Of a stretch of 64,000 nucleotides of DNA, positions 5,868-38,616 are shown piece by piece. Under the pieces are notes generated by a model that was given only the letters and a program-made list of their open reading frames with translations, was not told where the DNA came from and did no database searches. The translations under genes were made by a program, and so were the position numbers. Origin of the DNA: a virus. Position 1 is the first letter of the stretch, and the number at the start of each line of letters is the position of its first letter. Where the stretch lies: positions 1,663-65,662 of the IMG/VR virus record IMGVR_UViG_3300020037_009719; one strand, given 5' to 3'.

Positions 5868-5920
5868 CTTAAGTTTATTTTAAACGTTCTTTTTCTTATT
5901 TTTACGATAAATAAAATACA

Positions 5921-8900
5921 ATGGAAAAGATTCATGTTTGCTCATCACCTAATTGTTCCCATTCTTCTCATAAAAATAGACCAATGGTCAACCCACATAT
6001 TCACAGTGGGTTTTCTTTATTAGACGGGGCAGCTAAAACAAGTGATTATATAAAGTTAGCTAAAGAATATGGACATCCAGCTTTAGCTATAACAGATCAT
6101 GGTAACCCAGCTGGTTTGTATGACCATTATAAACAGGTTAAAGCTGCAGGTTTAAAACCTATCTTAGGGGAAGAGTTTTATTTAGCATTAGATATTACAG
6201 AAAGAGTTCCTAACAGATTAAGAGAACCTCATAAAAGAGATAAACATCAAACAGTTTTAATTCAAAATCAAGAAGGTTATAAAAACTTCTGTAAGTTAAC
6301 ATATTTGAGTTTTACAGAAGGTTATTATGCAAAACCTAGAATTGATTATGACATGTTGTTTCAATATGGAAATGGTTTAGTTATAACTTCTGGTTGTGCG
6401 GCTAGTATTTTCAATCAACTATTAAATTTAGGGAAAGAAACAGAAGCAGAAGAATGGTTTGTTAAATTTGTTAAACGATTTGGTGCTAATTTTTATGGAG
6501 AGATACAGTTTAATGAATTGTTAGACAAAGAAAAGTATGGTATGAATCAAAAACAAATGAATGATTTTATCATTAAAATGTCTAACAAGTATGATATACC
6601 TTTATTAATTGGTGGAGATACTCATTATGCTTATAAGGAAGATGCAAAATTGCAAGACGTGTTAATTGCAGCACAAAGACGTAAAGACGGGGTTGCAGAA
6701 GTAGAAGAGGATAATGAAGAAAAGAAAAAAGATTTTATTATTCATGCAAGACATTTATACTATCATCAATCAGAAGATTATTATAATTTCAACAAAGAGT
6801 TTGGTTACAATTATGATGAAGGTTTGATAACTCAAGCTTTAGATAATTCTATTAAGTTAGCTGATTCAATAAATTTTGAATTTGAAACAGGTAAAGTTAA
6901 CTTCCCTAAATTCAACACGAATGACCCTAAAAAAACTTCTCATCAATTATTAGAAGAGCATGCTTGGGCAGGTTTGATGCAAAAACTACAACTTAGAAGA
7001 GATAAAGGGGAAGAAATCTCTAATGATAAAATTACTGAATATGAAAAACGATTAGATTACGAATTAGAAGTAATTAAAGATAAACAATTTAGTGATTATT
7101 TTTTAATTGTAGAAGATTTATTGAAATGGGCACGTCAAGAAGGTATTGGTGTAGGTGTTGGTCGTGGTTCTTGTGGTGGTAGTTTATTAGCATACGCTTT
7201 AGATATTATTGCTCTTTCACCTGTTAAGTATGATTTATATTTCGAACGTTTTCTTAACCCACAAAGAGAAAGTGCTGTAGATATCGATTTAGATATTGAA
7301 AATGGTGGTAGGGAGAAAATTAGACATTACTTAGAAGATAAGTATGGTAAAGAATCTGTTTTAGGTGTAGTAACTTTCCATTTATATGGACCTAAATCAG
7401 CATTACAAGATGCATCAAGAGGGTTGAAGAGAGATACTTCTTTTGAGTCTACATTAATGAAAGAGGTTACAAAGTTACCTGACTTAGATGAACAAAAAGA
7501 TTTAGTAACATATTTCCAAAAAGTATATAAAACTTCAACTTCTGAAACAGTTTTAAAGTGGTGTGAAGACAATCAAGATACAATTCTTTACGCTAATAAA
7601 TTGTTAGGTCAACCTAAAAATCTAGGAACTCATGCTGGTGGAATTTTAATTGCCCCAGGGCCTGTTTATGATTATATCCCTGTTACTAGAGGAGGTGGTG
7701 AGGTTGTTACTGCATTTAAAGAAGCAGATGGTTCATCTAAAGATTTATCTGAACTAGGATTATTGAAGTTAGATGTTTTAGGTTTGAGAACATTAAACGT
7801 TATAAATAATTGCGTTAAAAAAATTAAAATAGATTTAGGTGTAGATTTAAAACAAGAAATATTAGACTTAGATTTGAGTAACCCTGAATTGTTTGAATTG
7901 ATTCAAAAAGGTAATTTGTATGGTTTATTTCAATTAGACGGAGGAGCTTCACCTTTGGTTAAGATGATTAAACCAAATCGATTTGAAGATATTGTAGCTA
8001 TTAACTCTTTAAATCGACCAGGTCCACTAGAAACATTTGGACCTGTTTATGCAAAGTGGAAAAGACATTATGAAGAAGGGAAACCAGAAAAGTGTAAAGA
8101 AGATGAAATTTACCCTAAACTAGACTTTATGTTGAAAGCAACAAAAGAAAGTTATGGTGCATTAATTTTCCAAGAACAATTTATGTTTATGGTCAAAGAT
8201 GCAGCAGGGTTTAATTTAGGTGAAGCAGATAATTTTAGAAGAGCTATTGCTTGGACTAAAGATCATCCTAAATATTATACAGTGAAAAAATACTTTGATA
8301 CATTAGAAACAAAAATGCTTGAAAAAGGTTATTCCCAAGCAGACGTTGATTATTTTGTTGATTATTGTAGAAAATTCATGGGTTATTCTTTTAATAAATC
8401 CCATGCTTTGTTCTATAGTTATACAGGTATGCAATGTGTTTACTTAAAAAAGTATTACCCTGCATATTTCTATGCTGAGTTAGCTAATGTAGAAAGTCAT
8501 GAAAAGATAAGAGAAATTGTAGTTGATGCAATAGCAAATGGAATTAATGTTTTAGCTCCTTCTGTTACTAAATCACAACATGGATTTTCAGTTGAAAATG
8601 AAAAAACTATCAGAATGGGTTTCAATGCTTTAAAAGGTTTTGGTGACAAGGCGTATGAAGAATTAGTAACCCTTAAAGTTAGTGATAGTAAAAACATTTA
8701 TGATATTTTAACTTTACCATTTAAAAAATTAAACGTATCTGCATTTCAATCTTTAATAGATGTAGGTGCATTCGATGAGTTTGGTGTTGAGAGAGAAAAG
8801 ATTGAAAGTATAAGAGCTTTATATAAAGACCCAAAAATAGAAAAATGGTTTACTCGTAAAAGAAAACCATTAGACTTAACAACTATGCCACCTTCTTTAT

Positions 8901-9379
8901 TAGATTTCCCTGAAGAAGTTGTTATGGGGTTAGCAGAAAAACATAAAGATGATCCGGATCATTGGAAAAAACTAATTCATGAATTAATTCCTTTCATTAA
9001 AGTTAAACCTCTTAAAGAAGAGGTTAAAAATAATCGTGAGGAAAACATATTAGGATTTAGTTTAAAACAGGTAAGTAGTTTAGCGGAGTTACTTACTTTA
9101 GCAGAAAAATACCCTACCTTAAACTTAAAATCTCTAAGTCTTCATAATAATGAATCAGATTTATGTTATTGGAGTTTGGTAAAAAGAACTGTTCTAAAAA
9201 CAAAAAGGGGAAAAGAATATTTAAACTTAGAAATATCTGACGGTAGTACCACAATAAAAGCTAAATGTTGGGATATGCTTGATTTGAAAAAAGGAAAAGC
9301 ATACGTAAGTAATTTGAAAAAAGATTTATACGGGTATACTATTATTAACAATGGTTTATTAACAGAGATAGATTTGTAA
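5921..9379 (+). CDS. dnaE: DNA polymerase III alpha subunit (DnaE-type, N-terminal PHP domain)
   Basis: 1152 aa. PHP motifs HIHSGFSLLDGA and ALAITDHGN. Central polymerase core with GDxHY-like 'LIGGDTHYAY'. C-terminal OB-like region. Alternative start at 5984 (MVNPHIHS). Confidence 0.85.
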   Translation: MEKIHVCSSPNCSHSSHKNRPMVNPHIHSGFSLLDGAAKTSDYIKLAKEYGHPALAITDHGNPAGLYDHYKQVKAAGLKPILGEEFYLALDITERVPNRLREPHKRDKHQTVLIQNQEGYKNFCKLTYLSFTEGYYAKPRIDYDMLFQYGNGLVITSGCAASIFNQLLNLGKETEAEEWFVKFVKRFGANFYGEIQFNELLDKEKYGMNQKQMNDFIIKMSNKYDIPLLIGGDTHYAYKEDAKLQDVLIAAQRRKDGVAEVEEDNEEKKKDFIIHARHLYYHQSEDYYNFNKEFGYNYDEGLITQALDNSIKLADSINFEFETGKVNFPKFNTNDPKKTSHQLLEEHAWAGLMQKLQLRRDKGEEISNDKITEYEKRLDYELEVIKDKQFSDYFLIVEDLLKWARQEGIGVGVGRGSCGGSLLAYALDIIALSPVKYDLYFERFLNPQRESAVDIDLDIENGGREKIRHYLEDKYGKESVLGVVTFHLYGPKSALQDASRGLKRDTSFESTLMKEVTKLPDLDEQKDLVTYFQKVYKTSTSETVLKWCEDNQDTILYANKLLGQPKNLGTHAGGILIAPGPVYDYIPVTRGGGEVVTAFKEADGSSKDLSELGLLKLDVLGLRTLNVINNCVKKIKIDLGVDLKQEILDLDLSNPELFELIQKGNLYGLFQLDGGASPLVKMIKPNRFEDIVAINSLNRPGPLETFGPVYAKWKRHYEEGKPEKCKEDEIYPKLDFMLKATKESYGALIFQEQFMFMVKDAAGFNLGEADNFRRAIAWTKDHPKYYTVKKYFDTLETKMLEKGYSQADVDYFVDYCRKFMGYSFNKSHALFYSYTGMQCVYLKKYYPAYFYAELANVESHEKIREIVVDAIANGINVLAPSVTKSQHGFSVENEKTIRMGFNALKGFGDKAYEELVTLKVSDSKNIYDILTLPFKKLNVSAFQSLIDVGAFDEFGVEREKIESIRALYKDPKIEKWFTRKRKPLDLTTMPPSLLDFPEEVVMGLAEKHKDDPDHWKKLIHELIPFIKVKPLKEEVKNNREENILGFSLKQVSSLAELLTLAEKYPTLNLKSLSLHNNESDLCYWSLVKRTVLKTKRGKEYLNLEISDGSTTIKAKCWDMLDLKKGKAYVSNLKKDLYGYTIINNGLLTEIDL

Positions 9380-16196: not shown

Positions 16197-17723
16197 ATGT
16201 TCATTGGTTATATCGTCAACGACTTTCACCCTTGTTTGAAAACAATCAGTGAAAGTGAAATTGGAAAATATACAAACGATAAACCTATTTTAATTGTAGG
16301 TTTCGATAAAGCTTATGAGCTTTACCCTTCAATAACTCTTGAAAGCAAAGTTATTGACTCTTCTAAACAAATATTTTACTCCTTTTCTTTTCAAGAAGCT
16401 GAAGACAAGTATAAAGAAAATTTAAGAAATTTTTTAAATCATTGTTTTCAACTTTTCATTAATTCCTATAAAGTTATTCCTATTGTAGATGTTTCAGAGT
16501 TTAAACATTTGAAAGGGGAAGTTTTCTACTATGAAACTGCAACACTTATTACAGTTACTACCAGTAATAAGATTTACTACTTCAACAAAGAAATAATTAC
16601 TTTCTTAAACCCTGATAGTTTAGATTTACTTTTAGATAAGTTGCAAGGTGCAAATATTATTTCTTGGGAAAAGTTTACTTTTATTCAAAGTTATTTAAAA
16701 GCTAATAATTGTTACAAGTCTAAAGAACAGATTAGATTAGAATATGCTAATGTTGGAGATGTCGATTTGTATCTAGGGGCAATGTGTTTAGATAGTTTGG
16801 TTAATTTGAATTTAGCAAACAAGTCAATAGATACTTGGCAACGAGCATATGAAATTGAAACTTATTTATCTTCAATTAGAATTAAAGTTAACGAAGAGCT
16901 TTTGAAAAACTTAGCTTCTGATGAAGAGAACACTGTTGCACAAAGTATTTACAGTAACTTGAACAAAGGTTACATTGTTCAAAGATATAACGGGACAGAC
17001 AAGATAACAGGTAGAATTTTTGCAACTAAGTCTGGTTTTTCAGTTCAAACGTTAACATCGAATATGAAAAACATTATAGTAGCAGAAAAAGACTGTCTAT
17101 TAGTAGAGTTTGATTATCAATATTTTGAATACACATTACTATCACAATTATGTAAGTTTACTCTTGCAGTAGACCCTCATCTAGCTTTATCTCAATTGTT
17201 ATTTAGTGATACTGCTCATAGAGCAATCGGAAAAGAAATTAACTACAGTTTATTGTATGGTAAGTCTATAAACACCTTGTTAAAGGATTTATATAAACAG
17301 TTTGAAATTCATATCCCTGAACAAGAGTTAAAAGATAAATTGTTAGAGGTGATCAAACCTATGGAAGAATTAAAACAACGTTTAATTCAAGAGTTTGAAT
17401 CAAACAAGTTTATATTAAATTACTTTAATAGAAACATTACCCCAGATAAAAGTTATAATTGTTTAAATAATTACATTCAATCAACAGCAACTGACTTTTT
17501 TATCATTAAGCTTTTGAAAATAAAAAAACTGTTAAGTAAATATTCCTCTTTAAATCAAATCGTATTACAAAATCACGATTCAGTTTTATTAAACTTAACA
17601 GTTAGTGAAATTGAATCAACAGATTTAGTGAAAGAAATTTTTGCTATTCTAAGAGAAGAAGAAAATAGTCTAGTAGCAGAGGTAGACATGAAATATGGGA
17701 ATAGTTGGGGTAATTTAAAGTAA
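16197..17723 (+). CDS. family A DNA polymerase (compact PolA, no obvious exonuclease domain)
   Basis: Motif A EFDYQYFEYTLLSQL (DYSQIELR-like). Motif B RAIGKEINYSLLYGKS (RRxAKxINFGxxYG-like). Motif C NHDSVLL (HDE-like, Glu replaced by Ser). Confidence 0.6.
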   Translation: MFIGYIVNDFHPCLKTISESEIGKYTNDKPILIVGFDKAYELYPSITLESKVIDSSKQIFYSFSFQEAEDKYKENLRNFLNHCFQLFINSYKVIPIVDVSEFKHLKGEVFYYETATLITVTTSNKIYYFNKEIITFLNPDSLDLLLDKLQGANIISWEKFTFIQSYLKANNCYKSKEQIRLEYANVGDVDLYLGAMCLDSLVNLNLANKSIDTWQRAYEIETYLSSIRIKVNEELLKNLASDEENTVAQSIYSNLNKGYIVQRYNGTDKITGRIFATKSGFSVQTLTSNMKNIIVAEKDCLLVEFDYQYFEYTLLSQLCKFTLAVDPHLALSQLLFSDTAHRAIGKEINYSLLYGKSINTLLKDLYKQFEIHIPEQELKDKLLEVIKPMEELKQRLIQEFESNKFILNYFNRNITPDKSYNCLNNYIQSTATDFFIIKLLKIKKLLSKYSSLNQIVLQNHDSVLLNLTVSEIESTDLVKEIFAILREEENSLVAEVDMKYGNSWGNLK

Positions 17724-17757: not shown

Positions 17758-18549
17758 ATGGACTTAAATAAAGAAATTTACTTAACTAAACAAGAGTTTT
17801 CTTTCACTAGAGAAGAAAATATTTTATTAAACCTATTTATTGACTACCCTCAAGTTCTTAATATCTTAACAAGGCATAAAGCTTTTATTGTAGGTGGTGC
17901 ACTTACTTCTGTATTTTCCAATACTAAAATAAACGACTTAGATATATATTTTTTATCTGAAGAAGACTTAATACAATGTGAAAAAGAGTTGCTTAATATA
18001 AGTAGAAGTAAGTTTCAAACTAAAAATGCAACTACCTTTTTACACTTGATAAATGTTCCTTTACAAATAATAAAAAAAATAATCAAACCAACTGTTGAAG
18101 ATATATTTGATGAGTTTGATTTTACAGTTTGCATGGCAAGTTATAGTTTTGAGAAAAGAGAATTTATCTTCCACTATGACTTCTTTAAACATCTTGCACA
18201 AAGAGAATTAACTTTCAACACTAATAGTAAAAACCCAGTTCATGCTTTATTAAGAGTTGAAAAATATAAATCACGTGGTTTTACTTTCAAACAAAAAGAA
18301 TTATTTAAAGTAATTGGTAATATTGTTGCTATGAAAATTAATACTAATGAAGAAATGGCTTCTTTATTAGAAGGTATGTATGGAGAGAGTACAAAAGAAA
18401 TTGTTAAAGCTTTAAGAACTCCTACTTTAGATAAAGAAAATTTTGATTTAAGTAAATTTTTACAAATATTAGATGATTCATACAATCATGGGTCAATTGC
18501 ACTCGCAAAGAGTTCTACAATTACTCCTCTTGACGATCTTCCTTTCTAG
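17758..18549 (+). CDS. nucleotidyltransferase-fold protein (Pol-beta superfamily)
   Basis: VGGALTSVFSNTKINDLDIYF matches hG[GS]-x12-DxD; a third acidic site DFTV lies downstream. Confidence 0.45.
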   Translation: MDLNKEIYLTKQEFSFTREENILLNLFIDYPQVLNILTRHKAFIVGGALTSVFSNTKINDLDIYFLSEEDLIQCEKELLNISRSKFQTKNATTFLHLINVPLQIIKKIIKPTVEDIFDEFDFTVCMASYSFEKREFIFHYDFFKHLAQRELTFNTNSKNPVHALLRVEKYKSRGFTFKQKELFKVIGNIVAMKINTNEEMASLLEGMYGESTKEIVKALRTPTLDKENFDLSKFLQILDDSYNHGSIALAKSSTITPLDDLPF

Positions 18550-18651: not shown

Positions 18652-19824
18652 ATGACAAAAACAGTAACAAAACCAAAAGACCCTAAAACAGTAGTATTTT
18701 CAGGTGTTTTTATGAAACTTGCCGACATGAAAGGTGAAAAGAAATTAATCATCTCACCTCAGCAAGAGCCTTTATCTCCAACAGAAGCAATTGTTAAACC
18801 AGAAATTCAAGCTCAATTTAATAGCTCTGAATGGTATCAAGGTGATTTACTTCAAACTGATGAAGGTTTCACTCCAACAGGAACATTGAAAGCTTTAAAA
18901 ACAAAACCATCTCAAGATGATTTGAAAGCTGTTCGTTCTCGTGTTGAAGCTGCTTATTCTGAAATTGCTGCTTTAAAAACTGCATGGGAAGATTACAAGC
19001 AATATGAATTTAAAATTGCATCTGGTATTGCAGAAGTTCCAGCAGGGTTAGAAATTGACGACAAAGTATGGAACTTGATTTGTACGTCTGCAAAAATTGA
19101 CAAATACATTCTTTTATTAGGACCTAAAGGTTGTGGTAAAACAGAAACTGCTAAACAATTAGCTGCTGCAACAGGTATGGAACTTGTATCTTTCAATATG
19201 GGAGCTGCATTTAAACCAAAACAAATGTTTGCTGGAATGTTACAAGCAGAAAACGGTGACACTGTGTTTATCGAATCTGAATTCTTGAAAGCTTTCCAAT
19301 CAGAAACACCAACATTAATTTTCTTGGATGAGTTAACTCGTACTCCACAAGTAGCTACAAACTATTTGATGACAATCCTTGACCGTAACCAATCTTATAT
19401 TTACATTGAAGAATTAGGTAAACGTGTTTACCGTGGTTCAGGTGTAAGATTTATCTGCGCTGGTAACGTAGGGTCACAATATACAGATACACGTACAATT
19501 GACGGTGCATTCTGGGATCGTTTTATTAAATTGCCAGTGGATTACTTGTCACAAGCAAAAGAAGAAAAACTTGTTATGTCTCGTGCACCAAAAGCTAATC
19601 CAAAAGCAGTAAAAACTTTGATTGACCGTGCAAAGAAAACTCGCGAAGCTGAAAAATCTGGTAAATTAAGTTCAGCAATTTCAACACGTCAGTTGATTGA
19701 TATGGCTCACTACCTTGAATTAGGGTTTACAGTTGAAGAAGTTTTTGAAAACATTTTCTTAAATAACTTCATCAATGGAAACAATGATGAGCGTTCAGAA
19801 ATCAAGGCAATCTGCCAATCATAG
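18652..19824 (+). CDS. MoxR/CbbQ/CobS-like AAA+ ATPase
   Basis: Walker A LLLGPKGCGKTETAK; Walker B IFLDELTR; sensor region. Confidence 0.75.
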   Translation: MTKTVTKPKDPKTVVFSGVFMKLADMKGEKKLIISPQQEPLSPTEAIVKPEIQAQFNSSEWYQGDLLQTDEGFTPTGTLKALKTKPSQDDLKAVRSRVEAAYSEIAALKTAWEDYKQYEFKIASGIAEVPAGLEIDDKVWNLICTSAKIDKYILLLGPKGCGKTETAKQLAAATGMELVSFNMGAAFKPKQMFAGMLQAENGDTVFIESEFLKAFQSETPTLIFLDELTRTPQVATNYLMTILDRNQSYIYIEELGKRVYRGSGVRFICAGNVGSQYTDTRTIDGAFWDRFIKLPVDYLSQAKEEKLVMSRAPKANPKAVKTLIDRAKKTREAEKSGKLSSAISTRQLIDMAHYLELGFTVEEVFENIFLNNFINGNNDERSEIKAICQS

Positions 19825-19850
19825 TTACCAAGTATTACATTGAAATGTAT

Positions 19851-19883
19851 AAAGCCGCTAGGTTGTTTACTTTAGCGGCTTTA
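19851..19883 (+). terminator. terminator hairpin overlapping promoter-like motif
   Basis: aaagccgcta-ggttgtttact-ttagcggcttt, 10-bp perfect stem. Confidence 0.5.
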
Positions 19884-19890
19884 TCTTTAG
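19865..19890 (+). promoter_or_regulatory. conserved bipartite motif GTTTAC-N11-TATCTTTAG (copy upstream of the vWA gene)
   Basis: Exact GTTTAC and TATCTTTAG separated by 11 nt; one of 7 copies. Confidence 0.5.
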
Positions 19891-19914
19891 TTAAATTTAA
19901 AAATCAATACTCAT

Positions 19915-21894
19915 ATGAAAAAAATAGGTTCAGCATCAGGTCCTTCTAAGGCTTCAAAACATTTAGGAAAAAAAATGTTTTCTCGTGATAAAAAACTTGA
20001 AGATAAAAAAATTACTAAACCTTTAGAAGAGGTACATCCAGATGAGAAATTTTATAACGTTGACAAAAACGAATTAGAAGAAGTAATGTCTTCTAAAAAC
20101 CGTACGTCAAGTTACTGGTTGCCAGAAACAGATATTCCTGATTACTTTGTGTTACAACGTATGATGAAAAACATTAATACTGTTTGTGGTTTTATCACTG
20201 GAAAAGCATTGAGAGTTAATTTCTCTGAGATTGATGGTCCAAGTCATGCAGATTTTGCTGGTGAAGAAATTACTATTTCTATCGGCTCATTATATGACTA
20301 CCGTATTCCTTTCCATATGAGATTGAATATTGTTTTAGCTTTAGGTATTCATGAATCTTGGCATGTAAAATATACTACTCCTGCTATGGAGAGAATGTTA
20401 GTGCAAAATGGTTTAACAAAAAGTAAAATTTCTCGTTTTGGATTTGGTAAAACTCAAAAAGTTGCAGACTTTAGCCAAAGTGGTAAACTTTTCAAACATA
20501 ACTTCCAAACATTTTTAGCAAATTGTGTTGAAGATAGACGTATTGAACATTTAGGGTTAATTGATTACCCTGGGTATGTTTACTACATGGAAGAGTTTCG
20601 TAAATACGGGTTGTGGTGTAACATTAATGCTTTGTTAAACCCTGTAACTAAACCAGATTGGAATAACCCAGACCATTTTTATGGTGCATTAACACAATAC
20701 ATTGCATTTAAAAATGTAGCTCCAGAAATCTTACCAGTATTTGCTTCTTATGGACCGAATACAAAAGAATTCAAAGCTTTAACAGATAAAGTAGATGCAA
20801 TTTGTAAAGACGTTCCATTAACTTACGATGACACAATGTCACAGTCTTTAGAATTGTTGAAATTGTATCCTGACGAGCAAAAAAACAAACAAGCTAAGGA
20901 AAAAAATTGTAACGGAGATGGTAACGGTAAAAATCAAGGACCACAAATGGCAGAAGGAACTGCTGCTGATGGTAAAACTGTAAAACCAAGTAAAGACGAA
21001 AAAGAAGCAATTGGTGACATAAAAGACGATAATCAACCTTATGCTACTTCTGAGCAAAAAGATATTAAAATTGAAGATCGTTTTGACAAACATGACCAAT
21101 ACAGCCACGTTCATATTGAACCTGCAGCAGAAGGTCGTTTTGACCAAGCTGTTTTTGACCAAGCAAGTGAAATTGCTCGTCAAATTAGCAAAAATTTATC
21201 TTTCTTAGATTCACGTTTCAATCGTGTAACAGAAGCTTTTGAAATGAGAAATGGTGAATTGGATGAGGATGCAATCTTTGGTTTAAAATTCAACAAGGAT
21301 ATTTTCTACGAAGAAGAAGAAGCTCCAGGTTACTCAATGGATTTTGGAATCTTGATTGATGAGTCTGGTTCAATGCACGGTAGCAAAATTCGTGATGCTA
21401 AAATTGCTGCATTAGCTTTAGCAATTGCTTTGAAAGACAATCAACATATTAATTTATTTGTTTACGGTCACACAGCAAATACGGGAGGTCACCCAATTAC
21501 AATGTACAAATACTTTGACCAATTAGAAAAAGGTTGCCAAGATATTTCAACATTGTTTTCAGTAGAAGCAAGATCTAACAATGCAGATGGTTATGCAATT
21601 TCTGCAATGGGAGATATCTTAAACAAAGGTAAATCAAGACAAAAAGTTTTAATTGTTGCATCTGACGGTCAACCACACGCATCAGGTTACGGTGGAAGAC
21701 AAGCTAACCAACATACTGCTCAAATGGTTCAAAAACTTGAAATGCAAGGAATGTTTGTTTGTCAAATTGCAATGGAAAACTTTAACTCTGCTGAAATGTT
21801 TACAAACTTTGTTCCTTATGACAAAAACAGCTTAGGAGTTAACTTGAAAAAAGTGTTGTTAAAAAAATTAGTAGAAATCTCAAACTTAGTATAA
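19915..21894 (+). CDS. von Willebrand factor A domain protein (CobT/NorD-like partner of the AAA+ ATPase)
   Basis: C-terminal MIDAS motif ILIDESGSM; long acidic central region. Adjacent to the MoxR-like gene. Confidence 0.7.
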   Translation: MKKIGSASGPSKASKHLGKKMFSRDKKLEDKKITKPLEEVHPDEKFYNVDKNELEEVMSSKNRTSSYWLPETDIPDYFVLQRMMKNINTVCGFITGKALRVNFSEIDGPSHADFAGEEITISIGSLYDYRIPFHMRLNIVLALGIHESWHVKYTTPAMERMLVQNGLTKSKISRFGFGKTQKVADFSQSGKLFKHNFQTFLANCVEDRRIEHLGLIDYPGYVYYMEEFRKYGLWCNINALLNPVTKPDWNNPDHFYGALTQYIAFKNVAPEILPVFASYGPNTKEFKALTDKVDAICKDVPLTYDDTMSQSLELLKLYPDEQKNKQAKEKNCNGDGNGKNQGPQMAEGTAADGKTVKPSKDEKEAIGDIKDDNQPYATSEQKDIKIEDRFDKHDQYSHVHIEPAAEGRFDQAVFDQASEIARQISKNLSFLDSRFNRVTEAFEMRNGELDEDAIFGLKFNKDIFYEEEEAPGYSMDFGILIDESGSMHGSKIRDAKIAALALAIALKDNQHINLFVYGHTANTGGHPITMYKYFDQLEKGCQDISTLFSVEARSNNADGYAISAMGDILNKGKSRQKVLIVASDGQPHASGYGGRQANQHTAQMVQKLEMQGMFVCQIAMENFNSAEMFTNFVPYDKNSLGVNLKKVLLKKLVEISNLV

Positions 21895-22532
21895 TGGCTG
21901 AAAAAAAAGAAGACGGTAAAGGGAGAAAACTTCCCTTTACTATCAAATACGAAATCGAAGAAACTGCAGATGGTGCAGATGTAAACTTTAAGCTTGAAAA
22001 CAGCGAAGAAGATCGTTTGTTTGCTTACATGGTTACTTTATGGGACCTTAGTCAATTACTTGACAGAGCAATGGATGATAAACGTATTCCAACAGAAGTA
22101 AAAGCAGATTTCTTAACAGCTGCTAAGATTTTGAAAGATATGACCCAGGCTTGTAAAATGAAAGTAGAAGAAAAGCTTAAAATGGGAACTGAAACAACTA
22201 TCATGGAAAGATTACAAAAACTTTTCAAAGATGTAGCAGGTGACATGAATGAAGAAAATCCTTTCAAAGATTTAAAAGACCTAGGTAAAGATGGAATGAA
22301 ACCATCTAAGGTAGTCATCGGTGGAGATGTTCCAGAAGAAATTCGACAACAACTTGAGGATGCTCTCAAAGCACAATTCGGTGAAGATATTGACATCGGT
22401 AACATGTCAAAAAAAGAAACTGAAGAACTTATCAGTAAACGAAAATCAAAAGGTGAAAAGTCTGACGATGAAGTTGACTTTGATGATTTAGATAAAAAAT
22501 CAAATAAAGATTCATCTGATATTGATATGTAA
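21894..22532 (+). CDS. hypothetical acidic protein
   Basis: 212 aa, strongly acidic especially at the C-terminus. Confidence 0.5.
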   Translation: MAEKKEDGKGRKLPFTIKYEIEETADGADVNFKLENSEEDRLFAYMVTLWDLSQLLDRAMDDKRIPTEVKADFLTAAKILKDMTQACKMKVEEKLKMGTETTIMERLQKLFKDVAGDMNEENPFKDLKDLGKDGMKPSKVVIGGDVPEEIRQQLEDALKAQFGEDIDIGNMSKKETEELISKRKSKGEKSDDEVDFDDLDKKSNKDSSDIDM

Positions 22533-22536
22533 AAAA

Positions 22537-22648
22537 TAACTGAAACTGTAACAATTAAAAAAGTATTATGTAGAGTTACAGGGTTGAGGACCGAATAGGG
22601 GGGCTACATCTTCAGGAATCGGCTTAGACCTGTTATAGTTTCAGTTTA
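22537..22648 (+). other. structured intergenic element: GC-rich core flanked by 17-bp inverted repeat
   Basis: aactgaaactgtaacaa ... ttgttatagtttcagtt (16/17 complementary) enclose gggttgaggaccgaataggggggctacatcttcaggaatcggcttagacc. This core is far more GC-rich than its surroundings. Confidence 0.4.
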
Positions 22649-22659
22649 ATTTTAAAGTT

Positions 22660-23040
22660 ATGAATTTACAAATTTATGCCAAAGGGACTAAGTTAAGGTT
22701 AACAAAAGATTGGAATTTCCAATGTCATAAAGATGGTTATGGGCTTATGCCTTACTCACCTACAAATAGTTATACTTTACAAGCAGGTACAATCTTATCA
22801 ATTCATGATATTGATATTCGAGGTAATTGCAAAGTTCCAAGGTCAGTTTGTTTTCTTATCCCTAAAAAAGGTTGTCCTAGTGATGATTTTTACGAAAGTC
22901 AAACTTTTCATGTTGACTTCAATCAATTAGATAATTTAGAGTTTGAGTTAAATTCAAAAGCTGACTTAAAGTTAAATTCAATCAAGTTGAAAGATATGAT
23001 AAGTTCAATCAATGAAGAGTTAAACGTTAAAGAAAAATAA
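22660..23040 (+). CDS. hypothetical small protein with C-terminal INxELN-like motif
   Basis: ORF; C-terminus ...MISSINEELNVKEK. Confidence 0.45.
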   Translation: MNLQIYAKGTKLRLTKDWNFQCHKDGYGLMPYSPTNSYTLQAGTILSIHDIDIRGNCKVPRSVCFLIPKKGCPSDDFYESQTFHVDFNQLDNLEFELNSKADLKLNSIKLKDMISSINEELNVKEK

Positions 23041-23041
23041 A

Positions 23042-23431
23042 ATGAACTTAGAAAGTATTATCCTTTTTATAAGTATTGTTGTTATACATTTTATTGCTGA
23101 TTTCATTTTCCAGGATGAGAAATGGGCAGTAGGAAAAAGTCATTCTATAAAACTATTAACTTTACATGTTAGTATGTATACAACTGTATGGTTTATGTTT
23201 TGTAACTTTTACTGCTATGCAACAGGGAATTATATGATATATTTTTTAGTTCCGATAACTTTTGTTTCACATTGGTTAACAGATTACTTTACTTCTAAAG
23301 TCACAAGTCGTTTATATGCTGAAAAGAAATTCGGCTCATCTATACCTAATTTAAGTTTCTTTACAATGATTGGATTTGACCAAGTGTTACATTATATTCA
23401 ATTATTCTTAACTTTTTATTTTTTAAGTTAG
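23042..23431 (+). CDS. hypothetical membrane protein
   Basis: Hydrophobic helices. Confidence 0.45.
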   Translation: MNLESIILFISIVVIHFIADFIFQDEKWAVGKSHSIKLLTLHVSMYTTVWFMFCNFYCYATGNYMIYFLVPITFVSHWLTDYFTSKVTSRLYAEKKFGSSIPNLSFFTMIGFDQVLHYIQLFLTFYFLS

Positions 23432-23437
23432 TTTGTA

Positions 23438-23463
23438 GTTTACAAGGTTTAAAGTATCTTAAG
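23438..23463 (+). promoter_or_regulatory. GTTTAC-N11-TATCTTaAG promoter-like motif
   Basis: One mismatch to the consensus; 14 nt upstream of the ATG at 23477. Confidence 0.4.
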
Positions 23464-23476
23464 GTAAAATTAAAAT

Positions 23477-23755
23477 ATGAAAATCACTACAATCATATCA
23501 CAAATTGATATCTTATTAGAAGCTTTAAAACAAACACAAACAGTTTATAAGGTTTCTTACAAAGAACAAGTAGATATCTCTTGTTTAAAGATATTTTTAG
23601 ACCTCTCTTTACTTAATTTAGATTTACTTTATTCTCTGCAAGAGAAATGTAAAGAATTAGGTATTGAAGCTGAAATAACTATCCCAACTCACATTGATGG
23701 TGTCGCGGTAAAAGATTTACCTGTTGACAAGCAATGTTTAACAATTCATTTTTAA
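23477..23755 (+). CDS. hypothetical protein
   Basis: 92-aa ORF. Confidence 0.4.
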   Translation: MKITTIISQIDILLEALKQTQTVYKVSYKEQVDISCLKIFLDLSLLNLDLLYSLQEKCKELGIEAEITIPTHIDGVAVKDLPVDKQCLTIHF

Positions 23756-24003
23756 TATGGTTGAAAGAACTAAAACTTTAAGTTCTCGTGAACAGAAAGC
23801 ACAGAGATTGAAAGAACAAGTATTAAAAACTGAACAAAGTTTAAACGCACTTATATACTTATATGAAAAGCGTTACCTATATATTACAACAGTAAGTAAG
23901 TAAATAATTGTTTTAATTTATTTTATTTCCTACTTTTACATTAAGCATTAACAGGTATGCTTAATAATACTCCCTGTTTATAAATCTTATTATTTATTAA
24001 TTA

Positions 24004-24528
24004 ATGAAAGAAGTAAGATTATGTGCTAATCAAGAGTGTGGTAAAGAGTTCACTGTTTGGTCTTCACAAAAGAAGAGATATTGTTGTAGAAAGTGCACAA
24101 TGACTTTAGAAAGGCGAGAGTCAATAAGACAAGAGAAAACTGGAAAACCAAACCCCAAAGTATCAATTGCACTGAAAAATTCTATTTCAGCTAAAAAATA
24201 TCAATTTAAAAAGGGAAAAGACAATCCAGCATTTGGACGAAATCAAACAGGTGAAGCAAATCACAATTGGAAAGGTGGAAAAACAAATAAGAATCAAAAA
24301 TTAAGAAATAGTCCACAGTATAAAATTTGGCGACAAGCTTGTATGGAACGAGATCACTTTCAATGTACTGATTGTGGTGCAAAGGGATATTTACAAGTAC
24401 ATCATATAAAAGAGGTCTCTAACTACCCTGAACTTATTTGGGAACTTGATAACGGAAAAACAGTTTGCGTGTCGTGTCACGAAAAAATACACGGAAGATT
24501 TATAGGAAAATTTAAACAACAAAAATAA
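24004..24528 (+). CDS. HNH homing endonuclease
   Basis: N-terminal Cys-rich region; HHIKEVSNYPE...NGKTVCVSCHEKIH HNH motif. Confidence 0.75.
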   Translation: MKEVRLCANQECGKEFTVWSSQKKRYCCRKCTMTLERRESIRQEKTGKPNPKVSIALKNSISAKKYQFKKGKDNPAFGRNQTGEANHNWKGGKTNKNQKLRNSPQYKIWRQACMERDHFQCTDCGAKGYLQVHHIKEVSNYPELIWELDNGKTVCVSCHEKIHGRFIGKFKQQK

Positions 24529-25421
24529 TGGAAAATAAAAAAAAATATGCCTGTATAAGTTTATCAGGTGGGATGGACTCTTCTACTTTACTTCTTAAAT
24601 TGTTAGTTGAAGGTTATAATGTTACTGCTTTATCTTTTAATTACGGTCAAAAGCACTCTGTAGAATTAGAAAGAGCAACTGAATTAGTGAAATATATTAA
24701 ATCAGATTCAAAAGGGGCTGGAAAAAGACAATCTGGAACTTTAACTCATCAAATTATTAAACTAGATGGTTTAGGACAATTGTTAAATTCAACTTTAGTT
24801 GAAGGTGGTTCAGATGTTCCAGAAGGGCATTATGCTGAAGAAAATATGAAAGACACGGTTGTGCCAAATCGTAATAAAATATTTTCTTCAATTATTCAAG
24901 CAGTTGCTTTATCTATAGCAGAACAAAATAATACTGAATGCGCTATTGCTATGGGTATTCATGCTGGTGATCATGCTATCTACCCTGATTGTAGACAAGA
25001 GTTTAGAGATGCAGATTTTGAAGCTTTCAAACAAGGTAATTGGGGGTCTGAAAAAGTAATCATCTATACTCCTTATCTTCATACTGATAAATTCGGTATT
25101 TTAGAAGATGGGTTAGTTTGTTGTGAAAAGTTAAGTTTAGATTTTAACGAAATATATAAACGTACTAATACAAGTTATAAGCCAATTTTTATCAGAGAAG
25201 TTTCTAAACAAACAATAGACGATAAAGACTATTACACCCCTGAAAGTAATGGTAAATGGTATTCAGATTATAAGTCAGCAAGTTCGGTAGAACGAATAGA
25301 AGCATTTATTAAATTAGGTAAACAAGACCCAGTTGAATATGCTGATGAAACAGGACCTGTTTCATGGGAAACAGCAAAAGCTTATGTAGAGAAAGTTCTC
25401 GCTGAACATAGTAATAAATAG
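24528..25421 (+). CDS. queC: QueC-like PP-loop ATP pyrophosphatase (7-cyano-7-deazaguanine synthase family)
   Basis: ISLSGGMDSST (SGGxDS PP-loop), FNYGQKH, VPNRNKIF, YPDCRQEF all align to E. coli QueC. The C-terminal CxxC Zn cluster is absent and the C-terminus is extended. Confidence 0.7.
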   Translation: MENKKKYACISLSGGMDSSTLLLKLLVEGYNVTALSFNYGQKHSVELERATELVKYIKSDSKGAGKRQSGTLTHQIIKLDGLGQLLNSTLVEGGSDVPEGHYAEENMKDTVVPNRNKIFSSIIQAVALSIAEQNNTECAIAMGIHAGDHAIYPDCRQEFRDADFEAFKQGNWGSEKVIIYTPYLHTDKFGILEDGLVCCEKLSLDFNEIYKRTNTSYKPIFIREVSKQTIDDKDYYTPESNGKWYSDYKSASSVERIEAFIKLGKQDPVEYADETGPVSWETAKAYVEKVLAEHSNK

Positions 25422-25440
25422 TTAAATTATTTTAAATTAA

Positions 25441-25474
25441 GAACCTACGCTACGCGTAGGTTCTCCTTGTTTTT
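25441..25474 (+). terminator. rho-independent terminator
   Basis: gaacctacgc-tac-gcgtaggttc 10-bp stem plus T-tract. Confidence 0.65.
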
Positions 25475-25501
25475 AACGTTTTTTGTTATTTTCGGTAGGA
25501 A

Positions 25502-25527
25502 GTTTACAAGTTTAACCATATCTTTAG
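25502..25527 (+). promoter_or_regulatory. GTTTAC-N11-TATCTTTAG promoter-like motif
   Basis: Exact consensus; 24 nt upstream of the ATG at 25551. Confidence 0.5.
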
Positions 25528-25550
25528 ATTATAAATTAAAACATATAGCA

Positions 25551-25889
25551 ATGAGTTATAAAAAATTCAAAATGACTGAAGAAGAGTTTATCGATTATTG
25601 CGAATCTCTTACTGAACAAGAATTGAAAAGATTTCAATTAGAGTCAAAAAAGGATGATATTCAAAGAGCACACCATTGGCTTTATATTGCATGTATTACA
25701 ATGGTTTTAGCATCATTTTCTACAAACTGGGCTAAACATGTAGCAGATTCTACATTATTATATGTTACTTGCTTTATAATTACAATAGTTTCAATTTTTT
25801 TCGTTTTCGGTTTACTTAAAAGAATAAAACAAGAAAAATTAATGTATAAAATGTTAGAAATTTTCTACAAAGAAAACAATATCCTTTAA
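25551..25889 (+). CDS. hypothetical membrane protein
   Basis: In-frame ATG after the promoter motif; the track start overlaps the terminator. Two TM helices. Confidence 0.45.
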   Translation: MSYKKFKMTEEEFIDYCESLTEQELKRFQLESKKDDIQRAHHWLYIACITMVLASFSTNWAKHVADSTLLYVTCFIITIVSIFFVFGLLKRIKQEKLMYKMLEIFYKENNIL

Positions 25890-25891
25890 TC

Positions 25892-26071
25892 ATGGCAAAG
25901 AAAAAAGAAATTATCAAATTTGACCCCGAAGAAGTTAGAAAAGGGTTAAAAGGTATTCGCAGACAAGAAGAAATTGATAACCAATTGCGAATACCTACTC
26001 ATACTGTTCAAAAAAGTAAAAAAGAATACACTCGTAAACGTAAACATAAGAAAAATTTTGAAGTTGAATAA
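25892..26071 (+). CDS. hypothetical small basic protein
   Basis: 59-aa Lys/Arg-rich ORF below the track threshold. Confidence 0.35.
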   Translation: MAKKKEIIKFDPEEVRKGLKGIRRQEEIDNQLRIPTHTVQKSKKEYTRKRKHKKNFEVE

Positions 26072-26143
26072 TTTTATATATCTTTAGTAAAAAATAAATT
26101 TAAAGTTCTGAACCTCGCATTACATATACACCTTGTTATACAC
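26072..26143 (+). promoter_or_regulatory. leader of cassette array: TATCTTTAG -10-like box plus a GTTRRRY-like half site
   Basis: atatctttag at 26080-26090; acatatacaccttGTTATAc at 26122-26143 matches the right arms of the downstream inverted-repeat elements. Confidence 0.35.
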
Positions 26144-26199
26144 AGTACGGTTTATTAATGTTGAATGCTGATACAAAGAATAATTAAAATTAAAAAAAT

Positions 26200-27163: not shown

Positions 27164-27257
27164 TGCTAACGGTCGGCAATATGAAATGGTTGCCTTGTAA
27201 GACGTTTAAAATTTAGTAATAGCCTATCGGCAACTTTTTTATATTGCTTGTTAGGCA
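27164..27257 (+). repeat. attC-like imperfect inverted repeat element 2
   Basis: tgCTAACggtcggcaatatgaaatggttgcc ... ggcaacttttttatattgcttGTTAGGCa; same bulged architecture. Confidence 0.6.
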
Positions 27258-27271
27258 CAGTAATTTATCAA

Positions 27272-27529
27272 ATGAAAATATATCAAACAAATGCAGCACT
27301 TGGTTATAGACAACTTGCATTTCTAATTAGATTAGATAAAAGTGCGAATGGACACAACTACCTATGTATAGGCACACAAAATATTAATGACAACGAAATG
27401 TATCAAATTGGTAAAATAGTTGAAGATTTAGAAGATTTTTATTTGGAAGATACAACTTTCAAAATAACTGATTCTGAATTAAACGGAACTTATCTGTTTG
27501 ATTACTGGGTTTCTCATTATTGTGCCTAA
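27272..27529 (+). CDS. hypothetical protein (cassette ORF)
   Basis: ATG 27272 (track start is TTG inside the repeat). Stop TAA lies inside the GCCTAAC inverse-core-like motif. Confidence 0.45.
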   Translation: MKIYQTNAALGYRQLAFLIRLDKSANGHNYLCIGTQNINDNEMYQIGKIVEDLEDFYLEDTTFKITDSELNGTYLFDYWVSHYCA

Positions 27530-27618
27530 CGGTTGGGTGTATGAGAAGGTTTGCTTAGATGAACTTTCAAATTAATACAAATACATGTAGCAAACTTTCT
27601 TATACACCTTGTTATATG
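27524..27618 (+). repeat. attC-like imperfect inverted repeat element 3
   Basis: GCCTAACggttgggtgtatgagaaggtttgct ... agcaaactttcttatacaccttGTTATAt. Confidence 0.6.
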
Positions 27619-27652
27619 CTTGCACGGTTTATTAATGATAAAATTAATTAAA

Positions 27653-27985
27653 ATGAAAAAGTTTAAATTTGAAGATTTACAATTAATTAATGTAGGCGAT
27701 ATTTATGCTATTACTTATAACGATAAAATAATTACCCTTGAAGGTAAAACCACATTTTCGACAATAAGTAATGCGAAAAATATGCTTCAAAAAGTATTAA
27801 CTGCTAATTATCATCAAGGACATTATTGGCACAAAGGTAAAGAAAATACCTTTTCTGATGAAGGTGGGCATATGAGAAACGGGGGTGTTATGGCTGGTTT
27901 GGATAAAATATTTAAAAAATTAGGCAAAGAACTAACTGAAGAATTACTTTCTAATGGCGTTTTTGTGATTAAAAAAATACAATAG
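27653..27985 (+). CDS. hypothetical protein (cassette ORF)
   Basis: ATG after the conserved cacggtttattaatg motif. Confidence 0.45.
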   Translation: MKKFKFEDLQLINVGDIYAITYNDKIITLEGKTTFSTISNAKNMLQKVLTANYHQGHYWHKGKENTFSDEGGHMRNGGVMAGLDKIFKKLGKELTEELLSNGVFVIKKIQ

Positions 27986-28013
27986 TAATTTAGTAGCACG
28001 TTTGTAGTGCTTG

Positions 28014-28107
28014 CATATAACGGCTTGGTGTATGAGAAGGTTTGCTTTGATGAACTTCAAATTTACACTGAACTTGATAGCAAACTTTCTCATACACCTT
28101 GTTATAG
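28014..28107 (+). repeat. attC-like imperfect inverted repeat element 4 (near-duplicate of element 3)
   Basis: cATAACggcttggtgtatgagaaggtttgct ... agcaaactttctcatacaccttGTTATAg. Confidence 0.6.
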
Positions 28108-28151
28108 TTAGTTTTATTTTTTATTTTACAAAATTATAAATTTTCATAGAT

Positions 28152-29510: not shown

Positions 29511-30326
29511 ATGGAAACACTCATTGAAAGTAAAGTTAATCGATTTGTTGAAAAGTTAGAGTTAAAACGTTACTCTAAAAACACAAAAAATATATATCTT
29601 TCAAACTTTAAATCTTTTTTAAACTATTTTAAAGGAGATATAGATAATTTAAAAGATTCAGATATTTGTAATTATATTTTAACACAATCTAAAAACAAGT
29701 CGTACTCTTATCAAAATGTGTTAACAAATACTATTAAATTTTATTACGAAAAGGTAAATTATAGAAAAAGAAGGTTTTATAAAATAGAAAGACCTAAACA
29801 AGAAAGAAAGTTACCACAAGTGATTTCTAAAGAAGAAGTTTTAAAATCTATAGAGTTAATACCTAATTTAAAACATAAAGCAATAATTTCACTAGCTTTT
29901 TCTACTGGAATGAGAGTAAGTGAGATATGTAATTTGAAAATAGTAGATATTGATTCAAAGAGAATGATTTTAAGAATTTTAGATAGTAAAGGTAAAAAAG
30001 ATAGAATAGTTCCTTTATCTGAAAGTATACTAACTTTGTTGAGAAGTTATTGGCAAGAATATAAACCTAAATTTTATTTATTTGAATCCTATAAACCTGG
30101 GGTTAAATATTCGACAGCGAGTTGTAGACAAATATGGAATAAATATAAAATAAATAAGCAAAGTACTTTTCACACTCTTAGACATAGTTTTGCTACAACT
30201 ATGTTAGAAAATAAAACTGATATTAGGACAATTCAAAGACTTTTAGGTCATTCTAATTTGAAAACAACAGAAATATATACCCACGTTTCTACTGATTATT
30301 TGAAAACTTTAAAGTTACCTATATAA
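29511..30326 (+). CDS. tyrosine site-specific recombinase (integrase/XerC-D family)
   Basis: MRVSEI (Arg I), HTLRHSFAT (HxxR), LLGHS, IYTHV (catalytic Tyr). Confidence 0.8.
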   Translation: METLIESKVNRFVEKLELKRYSKNTKNIYLSNFKSFLNYFKGDIDNLKDSDICNYILTQSKNKSYSYQNVLTNTIKFYYEKVNYRKRRFYKIERPKQERKLPQVISKEEVLKSIELIPNLKHKAIISLAFSTGMRVSEICNLKIVDIDSKRMILRILDSKGKKDRIVPLSESILTLLRSYWQEYKPKFYLFESYKPGVKYSTASCRQIWNKYKINKQSTFHTLRHSFATTMLENKTDIRTIQRLLGHSNLKTTEIYTHVSTDYLKTLKLPI

Positions 30327-36433: not shown

Positions 36434-36505
36434 TGCGTTCTTAGCTGAGGTGGTTTAGCATTTGGTTGAAGCCCAAAAGACACTGGTTCGACTCCAGTAG
36501 ATCGC
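36434..36505 (+). tRNA. tRNA-Phe (GAA)
   Basis: Manual cloverleaf: acceptor GCGTTCT/AGATCGC (1 mismatch), D GCTG/TAGC, anticodon stem TTTGG/CCAAA, loop TTGAAGC, T arm ACTGG-TTCGACT-CCAGT. Confidence 0.75.
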
Positions 36506-36511
36506 ACAATA

Positions 36512-36585
36512 TGATTCTGTAGCTCAGTTGAATAGAGCAATTGCCTTCTAAGCAATAGGTCAAAGGTTTGAATCCTTTCAGAATC
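36512..36585 (+). tRNA. tRNA-Arg (TCT)
   Basis: Acceptor GATTCTG/CAGAATC, D GCTC/GAGC, anticodon ATTGC-CTTCTAA-GCAAT, T AAAGG-TTTGAAT-CCTTT. Confidence 0.75.
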
Positions 36586-36597
36586 ACTTAAAATAAA

Positions 36598-36679
36598 TGC
36601 CGACGCGCTAACGTTGGAGGGTTAGGACAGTCTGTAAAACTGTTACATAAGTCTAGTAGGTTCGAATCCTATCGGCGGC
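36598..36679 (+). tRNA. tRNA-Tyr (GTA), class II with 12-nt variable arm
   Basis: Acceptor GCCGACG/CGGCGGC (1 mismatch), D CTAA/TTAG, anticodon ACAGT-CTGTAAA-ACTGT, T GTAGG-TTCGAAT-CCTAT. Confidence 0.7.
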
Positions 36680-36762
36680 ACTAGCAGAACACAACTGCTG
36701 AAACAAATAGGTGATTCAGTTATCGGTGAGCAAGTCTGAACTAAAACAAAATGTTGCTTAAT

Positions 36763-36839
36763 GGACATATAGCTCAGCTGGTAGTAGCAAATGATTGTTA
36801 ATCATTAGGTCGTAGGTTCGAACCCTACTATGTCCGCCA
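36763..36839 (+). tRNA. tRNA-Asn (GTT) with encoded CCA
   Basis: Acceptor GGACATA/TATGTCC, anticodon AATGA-TTGTTAA-TCATT, T GTAGG-TTCGAAC-CCTAC, then G-CCA. Confidence 0.75.
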
Positions 36840-36848
36840 AGTAAACAA

Positions 36849-36934
36849 GCGAGTGTCGCATAGAGCCCGATTGCACCTGACTTCCAATCAGGAAAGATAA
36901 AATCACAACGCAGGTTGAAATCCTGTCGCTCGCT
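36849..36934 (+). tRNA. aberrant tRNA-like gene (anticodon TCC, Gly?) with 17-nt AT-rich extra arm
   Basis: Acceptor GCGAGTG/CGCTCGC (G-U), anticodon CCTGA-CTTCCAA-TCAGG, T GCAGG-TTGAAAT-CCTGT, 3-bp D stem. Variable region AAAGATAAAATCACAAC is atypical for tRNA-Gly. Confidence 0.45.
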
Positions 36935-36978
36935 CTCAGCCAGTTGTTAAATCTGGTGAAAATTAAAACTTAACAAAC

Positions 36979-37051
36979 GCAAAAATAGCTCAATTGGTAG
37001 AGCGTTGCCTTGCCAAGGCAAAGGTTGTGAGTTCGAGACTCATTTTTTGCT
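36979..37051 (+). tRNA. tRNA-Gly (GCC)
   Basis: Acceptor GCAAAAA/TTTTTGC, D GCTC/GAGC, anticodon TTGCC-TTGCCAA-GGCAA, T GTGAG-TTCGAGA-CTCAT. Confidence 0.75.
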
Positions 37052-37052
37052 C

Positions 37053-38489: not shown

Positions 38490-38562
38490 GACCTCGTAGC
38501 TCAATTGGCGGAGCACTATACTTTTAATATAGGGGTTATGGGTTCAAGTCCCATCGGGGTCA
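38490..38562 (+). tRNA. tRNA-Lys (TTT)
   Basis: Acceptor GACCTCG/CGGGGTC (G-U), D GCTC/GAGC, anticodon CTATA-CTTTTAA-TATAG, T ATGGG-TTCAAGT-CCCAT. Confidence 0.75.
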
Positions 38563-38616
38563 CAATTATTTTTATTTCTTACCTAGGGTTATATTCCTAT
38601 AACTTATGGGTTTTTA

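Follow-up and report, generated by a model that had tools for sequence, protein, structure and literature searches.

Why should a very large phage keep a gene for QueC, an enzyme of 7-deazaguanine synthesis, when none of the genes that accompany it in related phages is found around it? The question is raised by a stretch of 64,000 nucleotides (nt), hereafter the window, taken from IMG/VR virus record IMGVR_UViG_3300020037_009719 (positions 1,663 to 65,662), in which a gene for an HNH endonuclease is followed directly by a QueC-family gene of 297 amino acids (aa) at 24528..25421 on the plus strand. An original prediction, made from the sequence alone, had suggested a QueC-like enzyme without its zinc site, possibly with altered chemistry, and a 7-deazaguanine modification of the phage DNA. 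Judged from sequence comparison and a structural model, the open reading frame (ORF) very probably encodes a QueC-family enzyme, predicted to be a zinc-independent synthase of 7-cyano-7-deazaguanine (preQ0). QueC itself is already known; what is new here is a zinc-free variant of it in an unusual orphan context. The best overall explanation, a zinc-less phage QueC that makes preQ0 for DNA modification, is one to which we give an even chance.

The protein matches the Pfam QueC model PF06508 with 125 bits (cut-off 22; E 3.9e-36) over profile positions 3–184 of 210, the match ending just before the cysteine motif, and PHROG 1550 ('QueC-like') with an E value of 5.6e-39. The PP-loop SGGMDS, the ATP pyrophosphatase motif (residues 13–18; 24564..24581, plus strand), is invariant in 68 clade members as well as in Escherichia coli QueC. 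The rest of the catalytic signature, as defined for canonical (cluster 1) QueC by Libby et al. (2026, PMC13082051), is kept in the form of Y39-GQKHSV-E46 (YxQxHxxE), V112-PNR-N116 (VPxRN), Y152-PD-C155 (YPDC), K188 and Y217, and the signature elements are found in 66–68 of the 68 clade members. Residues Y39, R115, Y152 and Y217 are the equivalents of E. coli Y35, R99, Y131 and Y189, mutation of which abolishes function (Libby et al., 2026, PMC13082051). The conserved PP-loop and further QueC blocks of the original prediction (SGGMDS, YGQKHSVE, VPNRN, YPDC, Lys and Tyr) are all seen. An AlphaFold2 model of the protein (mean predicted local distance difference test, pLDDT, 79; predicted template modelling score 0.80) has the QueC structures 2pg3 and 3bl5 as its closest PDB relatives by Foldseek, followed by Cap9, with QatC far behind; QueC structures are also the best PDB matches by phmmer.

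None of the four zinc cysteines is present in alignments of the window QueC with E. coli QueC and relatives, so the absence of a zinc-cysteine cluster was correctly predicted. The C(x)8CxxCxxC motif is missing, and the tail is free of cysteine in 57 of the 68 clade members and holds a single one in the other 11. The zinc site was also said to be replaced by a different tail of about 70 aa, and this part of the prediction does not hold. With QueC of Vibrio phage VH7D as a bridge the zinc knuckle is still alignable (SCGKCPSCAER vs SDYKSASSVER), and the C-terminal extension is shared with VH7D, the helix region KLGxxDPxxY...WE being common to the window QueC and this cysteine-containing protein. 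The remnant of the knuckle spans 25173..25286 on the plus strand; its former ligand positions are occupied by S216 (25173–25175), D247 (25266–25268), S250 (25275–25277) and S253 (25284–25286), none of which varies in a clade alignment of 56 sequences, and serine stands at the first ligand position in 68/68 clade members. Ligand 1 is separated from ligands 2–4 by an insert of about 27 residues and variable length, which AlphaFold2 models as a long beta-hairpin (residues 220–247, pLDDT 80–96) and which is nearly missing in some clade members (P0186, L136). Across the clade the span after the TSYKP motif measures 64–93 residues.

The window QueC has many relatives of the same kind. The IMG/VR set searched, in which the window phage itself is absent, holds 291 loci with clade matches, the best QueC match being 75% identical, and more than 8000 QueC-family matches were obtained from the protein database, the best 120 of which are all 63–80% identical and 283–337 aa long. 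A search of 1.84 billion proteins with the tail alone (residues 205–297) gave matches in 76 representative clusters. Where the match has full QueC size, two longer ones included, the tail lies C-terminal to the Pfam QueC domain; the remaining matches are mostly short fragments, and one degenerate relative (P0212) has kept the tail and lost the PP-loop together with any recognisable QueC domain. Another metagenomic member, P0186 (442 aa), carries an intein (Intein_splicing/Hint) between GIHAGDH and IYPDC in the active-site loop. In a cellular survey of one genome per GTDB species, which covered contigs of genomes and metagenome-assembled genomes (MAGs), C(x)nCxxCxxC was kept in 77/77 QueC homologues; the only exceptions were three clade-like proteins (60–66% identity) on contigs binned into MAGs. 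The cysteines are likewise kept in other phage QueCs (QueC* of Campylobacter phage CPt10, Cellulophaga phage phiSM and VH7D). Their retention in cells and in other phages alike indicates that the zinc-less form is a phage-restricted lineage, and by its sequences the clade is large and essentially phage-only. No description of it was found in the searchable literature.

What this lineage does can be approached through its gene context, which was counted in 80 IMG/VR loci carrying a clade QueC. A DpdA3-like gene is found in 67 of them, typically about 1 kb upstream of QueC, QueD in 69, QueE in 50 and FolE in 48; at least one partner is present in 79 loci, and the sole exception is truncated directly after QueC. 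QueF and DpdN are restricted to loci resembling that of Flavobacterium phage immuto, and most clade members therefore probably yield the deoxynucleoside of preQ0 (dPreQ0) or a related base. The window QueC is nested within the clade. Its sister, on a 171.7-kb IMG/VR contig (locus L014), is accompanied by DpdA3, QueD and FolE, and its nearest metagenomic relatives (75–76% identity) adjoin QueD/QueE or DpdA3.

Phage immuto connects the clade to a chemically identified product. Its QueC is 61% identical to that of the window over 98% of the length and has likewise lost all four cysteines, with the same C-terminal module and the same catalytic motifs. QueD, QueE, FolE, DpdA3, QueF and a PurN-like formyltransferase (DpdN) are encoded 11–18 kb downstream of it. 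In immuto DNA deoxyguanosine (dG) is completely replaced by 2'-deoxy-7-(formylamino)methyl-7-deazaguanine (fdPreQ1), at 345,000 per 10^6 nt (PMC10516641). This base is derived from 7-aminomethyl-7-deazaguanine (preQ1), the product of QueF acting on the nitrile preQ0. Since fdPreQ1 formation requires preQ0 for QueF, the simplest inference is that the zinc-less QueC of immuto is a working preQ0 synthase.

It could be argued instead that the zinc-less C-terminus changes the chemistry, so that the reaction stops at the amide 7-amido-7-deazaguanine (ADG), another nitrogen donor or acceptor is used, or DNA-bound bases become the substrate. The lost zinc motif, the beta-hairpin inserted beside an essential tyrosine and a score below the equivalog cut-off of TIGR00364 are what such a change would lead one to expect. 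We regard it as highly unlikely, as the catalytic residues are all canonical, the immuto product calls for preQ0 as the QueF substrate, and the hairpin is so variable (nearly absent in P0186 and L136) that a catalytic role for it is unlikely. Nor is zinc loss a signature of ADG-synthase QueC*, a candidate relationship that was rejected since CPt10 QueC* retains all four cysteines. A Gat-QueC was also rejected, there being no glutamine amidotransferase domain: Pfam recognises nothing besides the QueC domain, which begins at about residue 4. Both the conserved active-site residues and the domain content speak against DpdC-like chemistry. The suggested alteration along DpdC or Gat-QueC lines is consequently abandoned: no amidotransferase domain is present, residues essential in E. 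coli are kept, and the product of immuto depends on preQ0. Normal preQ0 synthesis is the best reading of the sequence.

The favoured explanation may be put as follows. The window QueC belongs to a lineage, confined to phages, that has given up the structural Zn(Cys)4 knuckle, and the enzyme would still make preQ0. The gene would have been captured singly from a phage with an immuto-type cluster of DpdA3 and preQ0 genes, and the adjacent HNH gene would be a selfish homing endonuclease and not a functional partner. The preQ0 may then be used for 7-deazaguanine modification of the phage DNA by DpdA together with genes of the 7-carboxy-7-deazaguanine (CDG) pathway located elsewhere in the genome of at least 220 kb; alternatively, the CDG could be made by the host. 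For the last part, that preQ0 is destined for DNA in this particular phage, the chances seem to us slightly less than even. As Hutinet and Cui are said to have reported in 2019 and 2023, phage systems of 7-deazaguanine DNA modification consist of DpdA, the signature protein, and the preQ0 pathway.

Several observations weigh against this explanation. QueC has been described as a zinc-dependent metalloenzyme with C(x)8CxxCxxC as the family hallmark (PMC13082051), and with the NCBIfam equivalog model TIGR00364 (EC 6.3.4.20) the window protein scores 114 bits, below the cut-off of 150.3. The preQ0 of immuto could in principle be supplied by a host QueC. No gene for DpdA3, QueD, QueE, FolE, QueF or DpdN was found in the region examined, which extends from -7.8 kb to +82.4 kb in window coordinates, i.e., about 90 kb of the genome, and in relatives the partner genes sit 1–8 kb from QueC. 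Searches of this region by tblastn with the immuto pathway proteins returned no partner gene, and family hidden Markov models (HMMs), built from 45–59 relatives each for DpdA3, QueD, QueE and FolE and from only two sequences each for QueF and DpdN, gave E values above 0.1 throughout. With hhalign, 85 ORFs compared with DpdA3, QueD, QueE and FolE reached a maximum probability of 3.3%. Precomputed Pfam annotation of the 90 kb, the sole test for DpdA1, DpdA2 and DpdA4, contained no match to a partner or to a tRNA-guanine transglycosylase. The earlier remark that no partner genes are present in the window is thus borne out by tblastn, family HMMs and hhalign. As to the 7-deazaguanine DNA modification that had been proposed, it is well grounded for the clade, through the 79 of 80 loci with partners and the fdPreQ1 of immuto, and unproven for this phage, in which 90 kb hold no partner.

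The source is an uncultured jumbo phage, represented by metagenome contigs only and without a close cultured relative. Cultured phages gave no megablast match to 4 kb of its sequence, and none has a DNA polymerase III (PolIII) alpha subunit more than 33% identical to its own, so that no cultured relative is usable as a proxy genome. The window sequence recurs on a 219,579-bp JGI contig, ahead of whose first base the window starts by about 7 kb, and, in other metagenome samples, on several contigs of smaller size; scanning of JGI metagenome contigs with a promoter-like motif of the phage (see below) recovered only pieces overlapping the window.

If the QueC does not serve DNA, it may serve translation. 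The orphan enzyme could convert host CDG to preQ0, from which the host enzymes Tgt, QueF, QueA and QueG would make queuosine on tRNAs with GUN anticodons, those for tyrosine and asparagine encoded by the phage included. The window contains eight tRNA genes (Met, Phe, Arg, Tyr-GTA, Asn-GTT, two for Gly, and Lys) at 3336–3406, 36435–37052 and 38490–38563, and among them tRNA-Tyr(GTA) at 36599–36681 and tRNA-Asn(GTT) at 36763–36839, 11 kb downstream of QueC, belong to two of the four classes of queuosine substrate. Eight further tRNAs lie just upstream of the window on contig L009 (positions 548–7052), where a ninth, a tRNA-Met, is the one already counted in the window at 3336. A gene resembling histidyl-tRNA synthetase (HisRS; class II aminoacyl-tRNA synthetase core, 205 aa) is found on the same contig at 634–1251, about 7 kb ahead of the window start; its metagenomic homologues (P0126–P0133) measure 300–580 aa, and several have intein or LAGLIDADG domains. 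Together with the lack of a DpdA within about 90 kb, the two substrate tRNAs and the additional tRNAs and HisRS-like gene upstream speak for a role in queuosine synthesis. The ancestry of the gene lies wholly in DpdA3 DNA-modification clusters, however, and we know of no phage that uses QueC alone for tRNA queuosine. The benefit is doubtful, as hosts able to make CDG normally possess a QueC themselves, and it may be by coincidence that tRNAs and QueC occur together in this jumbo phage. On balance a role in tRNA modification is unlikely.

A second use of host CDG would be counter-defence, in that its conversion to preQ0 could drain the substrate of the host defence proteins Cap9, of type IV CBASS (cyclic-oligonucleotide-based antiphage signalling system), and QatC, of QatABCD. 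In the model proposed for Cap9, CDG is activated with ATP and joined to the N-terminus of the cGAS/DncV-like nucleotidyltransferase (CD-NTase) (bioRxiv 10.1101/2025.04.06.647259), and this proposed use of CDG, as well as the need to explain the orphan context of QueC, would give the idea some appeal. It is also in line with a 263-aa protein matching Pfam Gad2 (PF26128), encoded at 17758–18549, 6 kb upstream of QueC and directly after PolA. Gad2 is an anti-Gabija protein; the Gad2-family protein of the window had no PADLOC match. Against this, the suggestion is purely speculative and without precedent, the ancestral role of the clade is DNA modification, and the PADLOC match of the QueC itself is only a weak generic one; we consider it the most far-fetched of the possibilities discussed here. 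Taken together, the broader notion that a jumbo phage without DpdA or a CDG pathway keeps a zinc-free QueC to act on host CDG, whether to starve Cap9 and QatC or to supply preQ0 for queuosine in its tRNA-Tyr and tRNA-Asn, is quite unlikely.

The immediate neighbourhood bears on another question, i.e., whether the gene has any present role at all. The HNH gene (24004..24528, plus strand) encodes 174 aa with an N-terminal, cysteine-rich segment resembling a zinc ribbon and a C-terminal HNH motif, and matches Pfam PF01844 (E 4.8e-7) and several PHROG HNH families. The two genes had been described as fused by a 1-nt overlap. The overlap is real, a single A in AAA TAATGG being common to the HNH stop codon TAA and the QueC start codon ATG; the fusion is not, as the two ORFs lie in different reading frames and are separated by this stop and start (TAATG). 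Homologues of the HNH protein come exclusively from contigs of this phage strain, and none stands beside QueC in any of the 80 related loci. It is probably a free-standing homing endonuclease, to judge from its sequence, and would be a selfish neighbour, not a component of the pathway. Two other genes of homing-endonuclease type occur in the genome, one HNH and one NUMOD3-type.

It is conceivable that QueC is a stranded passenger, the leftover or hitch-hiker of a horizontal transfer mediated by a homing endonuclease. Such a history could account for its isolation from all pathway partners and for its position beside a mobile-type HNH gene specific to this phage lineage, and the gene family is targeted by mobile elements elsewhere (the intein of P0186). 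The ORF is, however, intact. Of 136 positions conserved in the clade it retains 133 and departs at 3, where members embedded in clusters depart at 0–9. The GC content of the gene, overall and at third codon positions, matches that of the rest of the phage, and the identical protein is encoded on contigs from several independent metagenomes. When stop-to-stop ORFs of 40 aa or more flanking QueC were examined, none proved to be a pseudogene remnant of DpdA or QueD. The few deviations, the phage-like composition and the nesting in a cluster-bearing clade all suggest a functional-looking gene acquired singly, and from its sequence QueC looks like a functional gene that is well settled in this genome.

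The arrangement of signals around the pair argues in the same direction. A promoter-like motif, (G)AGTTTAC-N11-TATCTTWAG, has six exact intergenic copies on the plus strand of the window where 0.36 would be expected; counting one copy with a single mismatch, the sites are at 19864, 23437, 25501, 30352, 33570, 34672 and 38616, all upstream of plus-strand genes and often with RTTATAAAT following them. The motif probably represents a phage-specific promoter class. The nearest copy upstream (23437..23463, plus strand) precedes small ORFs ahead of the HNH gene and probably drives a unit running from an ORF at 23477 through HNH to QueC. A terminator-like hairpin (25440..25464, plus strand), with a stem of 11 bp and then a T run, lies 19 nt past the QueC stop codon, and the next promoter-like copy, at 25501–25527, lies beyond it. 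From this order HNH and QueC look like the end of a single transcription unit, and a unit bounded at its 5' side by a promoter-like motif and at its 3' side by a terminator-like hairpin counts against a mere passenger, a possibility that we rate as low as altered chemistry. A variant contig (L008; JGI 3300020050 Ga0206642_1013757) that aligns with window positions 19355–26172 lacks 21866–23238, has 23239–23599 inverted, and has the HNH gene cut down to its last ~114 codons, with the junction at window position 24191; it represents either a really rearranged strain or an assembly chimera.

Elsewhere the phage encodes PolIII alpha, PolA, RecA, DnaB, a class II ribonucleotide reductase, an integrase-family gene and many tRNAs. 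It has two DNA polymerases, the PolIII alpha subunit with a PHP domain (1152 aa, 5921–9379) and a family A polymerase (508 aa, 16197–17723); on a strain contig (L010) the PolIII gene encodes 1131 aa, and the 219-kb contig apparently starts inside the PolIII gene. An AAA-VWA pair at 18652–21894 consists of a MoxR/CbbQ-type AAA+ ATPase (390 aa) and a protein of 659 aa that matches VWA weakly, the latter without a close relative in IMG/VR. The tyrosine recombinase/integrase-family gene (271 aa) is located at 29511–30326. A 90-nt repeat (72% identity) occurs twice, at 49995–50084 and 53880–53969, inside an ORF of 1720 aa. Repeats of 48 and 29 nt at 27167–28123, spaced by about 360–490 nt among small ORFs, suggest a tandemly duplicated small-gene family at 27.1–28.1 kb.

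There may be at least three reasons why the window QueC is of wider relevance. First, a virus-only clade in which four zinc ligands have become Ser or Asp while the catalytic residues are kept, and which includes a phage with fdPreQ1 in its DNA, implies that the zinc of QueC is structural and dispensable, and the clade offers a natural system for testing this. Second, the clade proteins score below the NCBIfam equivalog cut-off and can be missed by annotation with strict models. Third, an orphan QueC bears on the published generalisation that DpdA is present in every virus with 7-deazaguanine synthesis genes, and on how pathway genes travel from phage to phage in the company of homing endonucleases and inteins. 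Should QueC act on host CDG after all, a deazaguanine enzyme would be used outside DNA hypermodification, as an exception to the DpdA rule.

The window QueC may also be compared with named systems. Cap9 resembles it in having a PP-loop ATPase fold with a QueC-like active site, and QatC shares the PP-loop ATPase fold; unlike it, both keep cysteine-rich zinc motifs. They also differ in size and setting, Cap9 being about 185 aa and encoded beside a CD-NTase and QatC, whose active site is remodelled, about 400 aa, as against 297 aa for the window QueC. Membership of either defence system was rejected: the PADLOC QueC model gives 48 bits where Pfam QueC gives 125, no QatC match exists, and in place of system partners an HNH gene and small ORFs surround it. 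The QueC* of Campylobacter phages (CP220/CPt10) resembles the window clade in being a phage homologue of QueC that goes with DpdA3, and is proposed to be an ADG synthase in phages with complete G replacement (PMC10516641). It differs in keeping the zinc cysteines and lacking a C-terminal extension, and the 32–34% identity is confined to the N-terminal ~60%. QueC of Vibrio phage VH7D (YP_009006088.1; Schizotequatrovirus) shares KxGxxDPxxY...WE after the knuckle helix, and it differs in its four retained cysteines, the absence of a hairpin insert and an overall identity of about 28%. Immuto departs from the window phage in context, having QueD, QueE, FolE, DpdA3, DpdN and QueF where the window phage has none in ~90 kb and an HNH gene upstream instead. 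Compared with canonical QueC the window enzyme is only 26% identical, has lost the zinc motif, is longer (297 aa vs about 220–231 aa), and has an extra beta-hairpin and a C-terminal extension. It nevertheless agrees with the enzymes of E. coli (b0444) and Bacillus subtilis (3BL5) in fold, PP-loop, YxQxHxxE, VPxRN and YPDC motifs, and the signature lysine and tyrosine.

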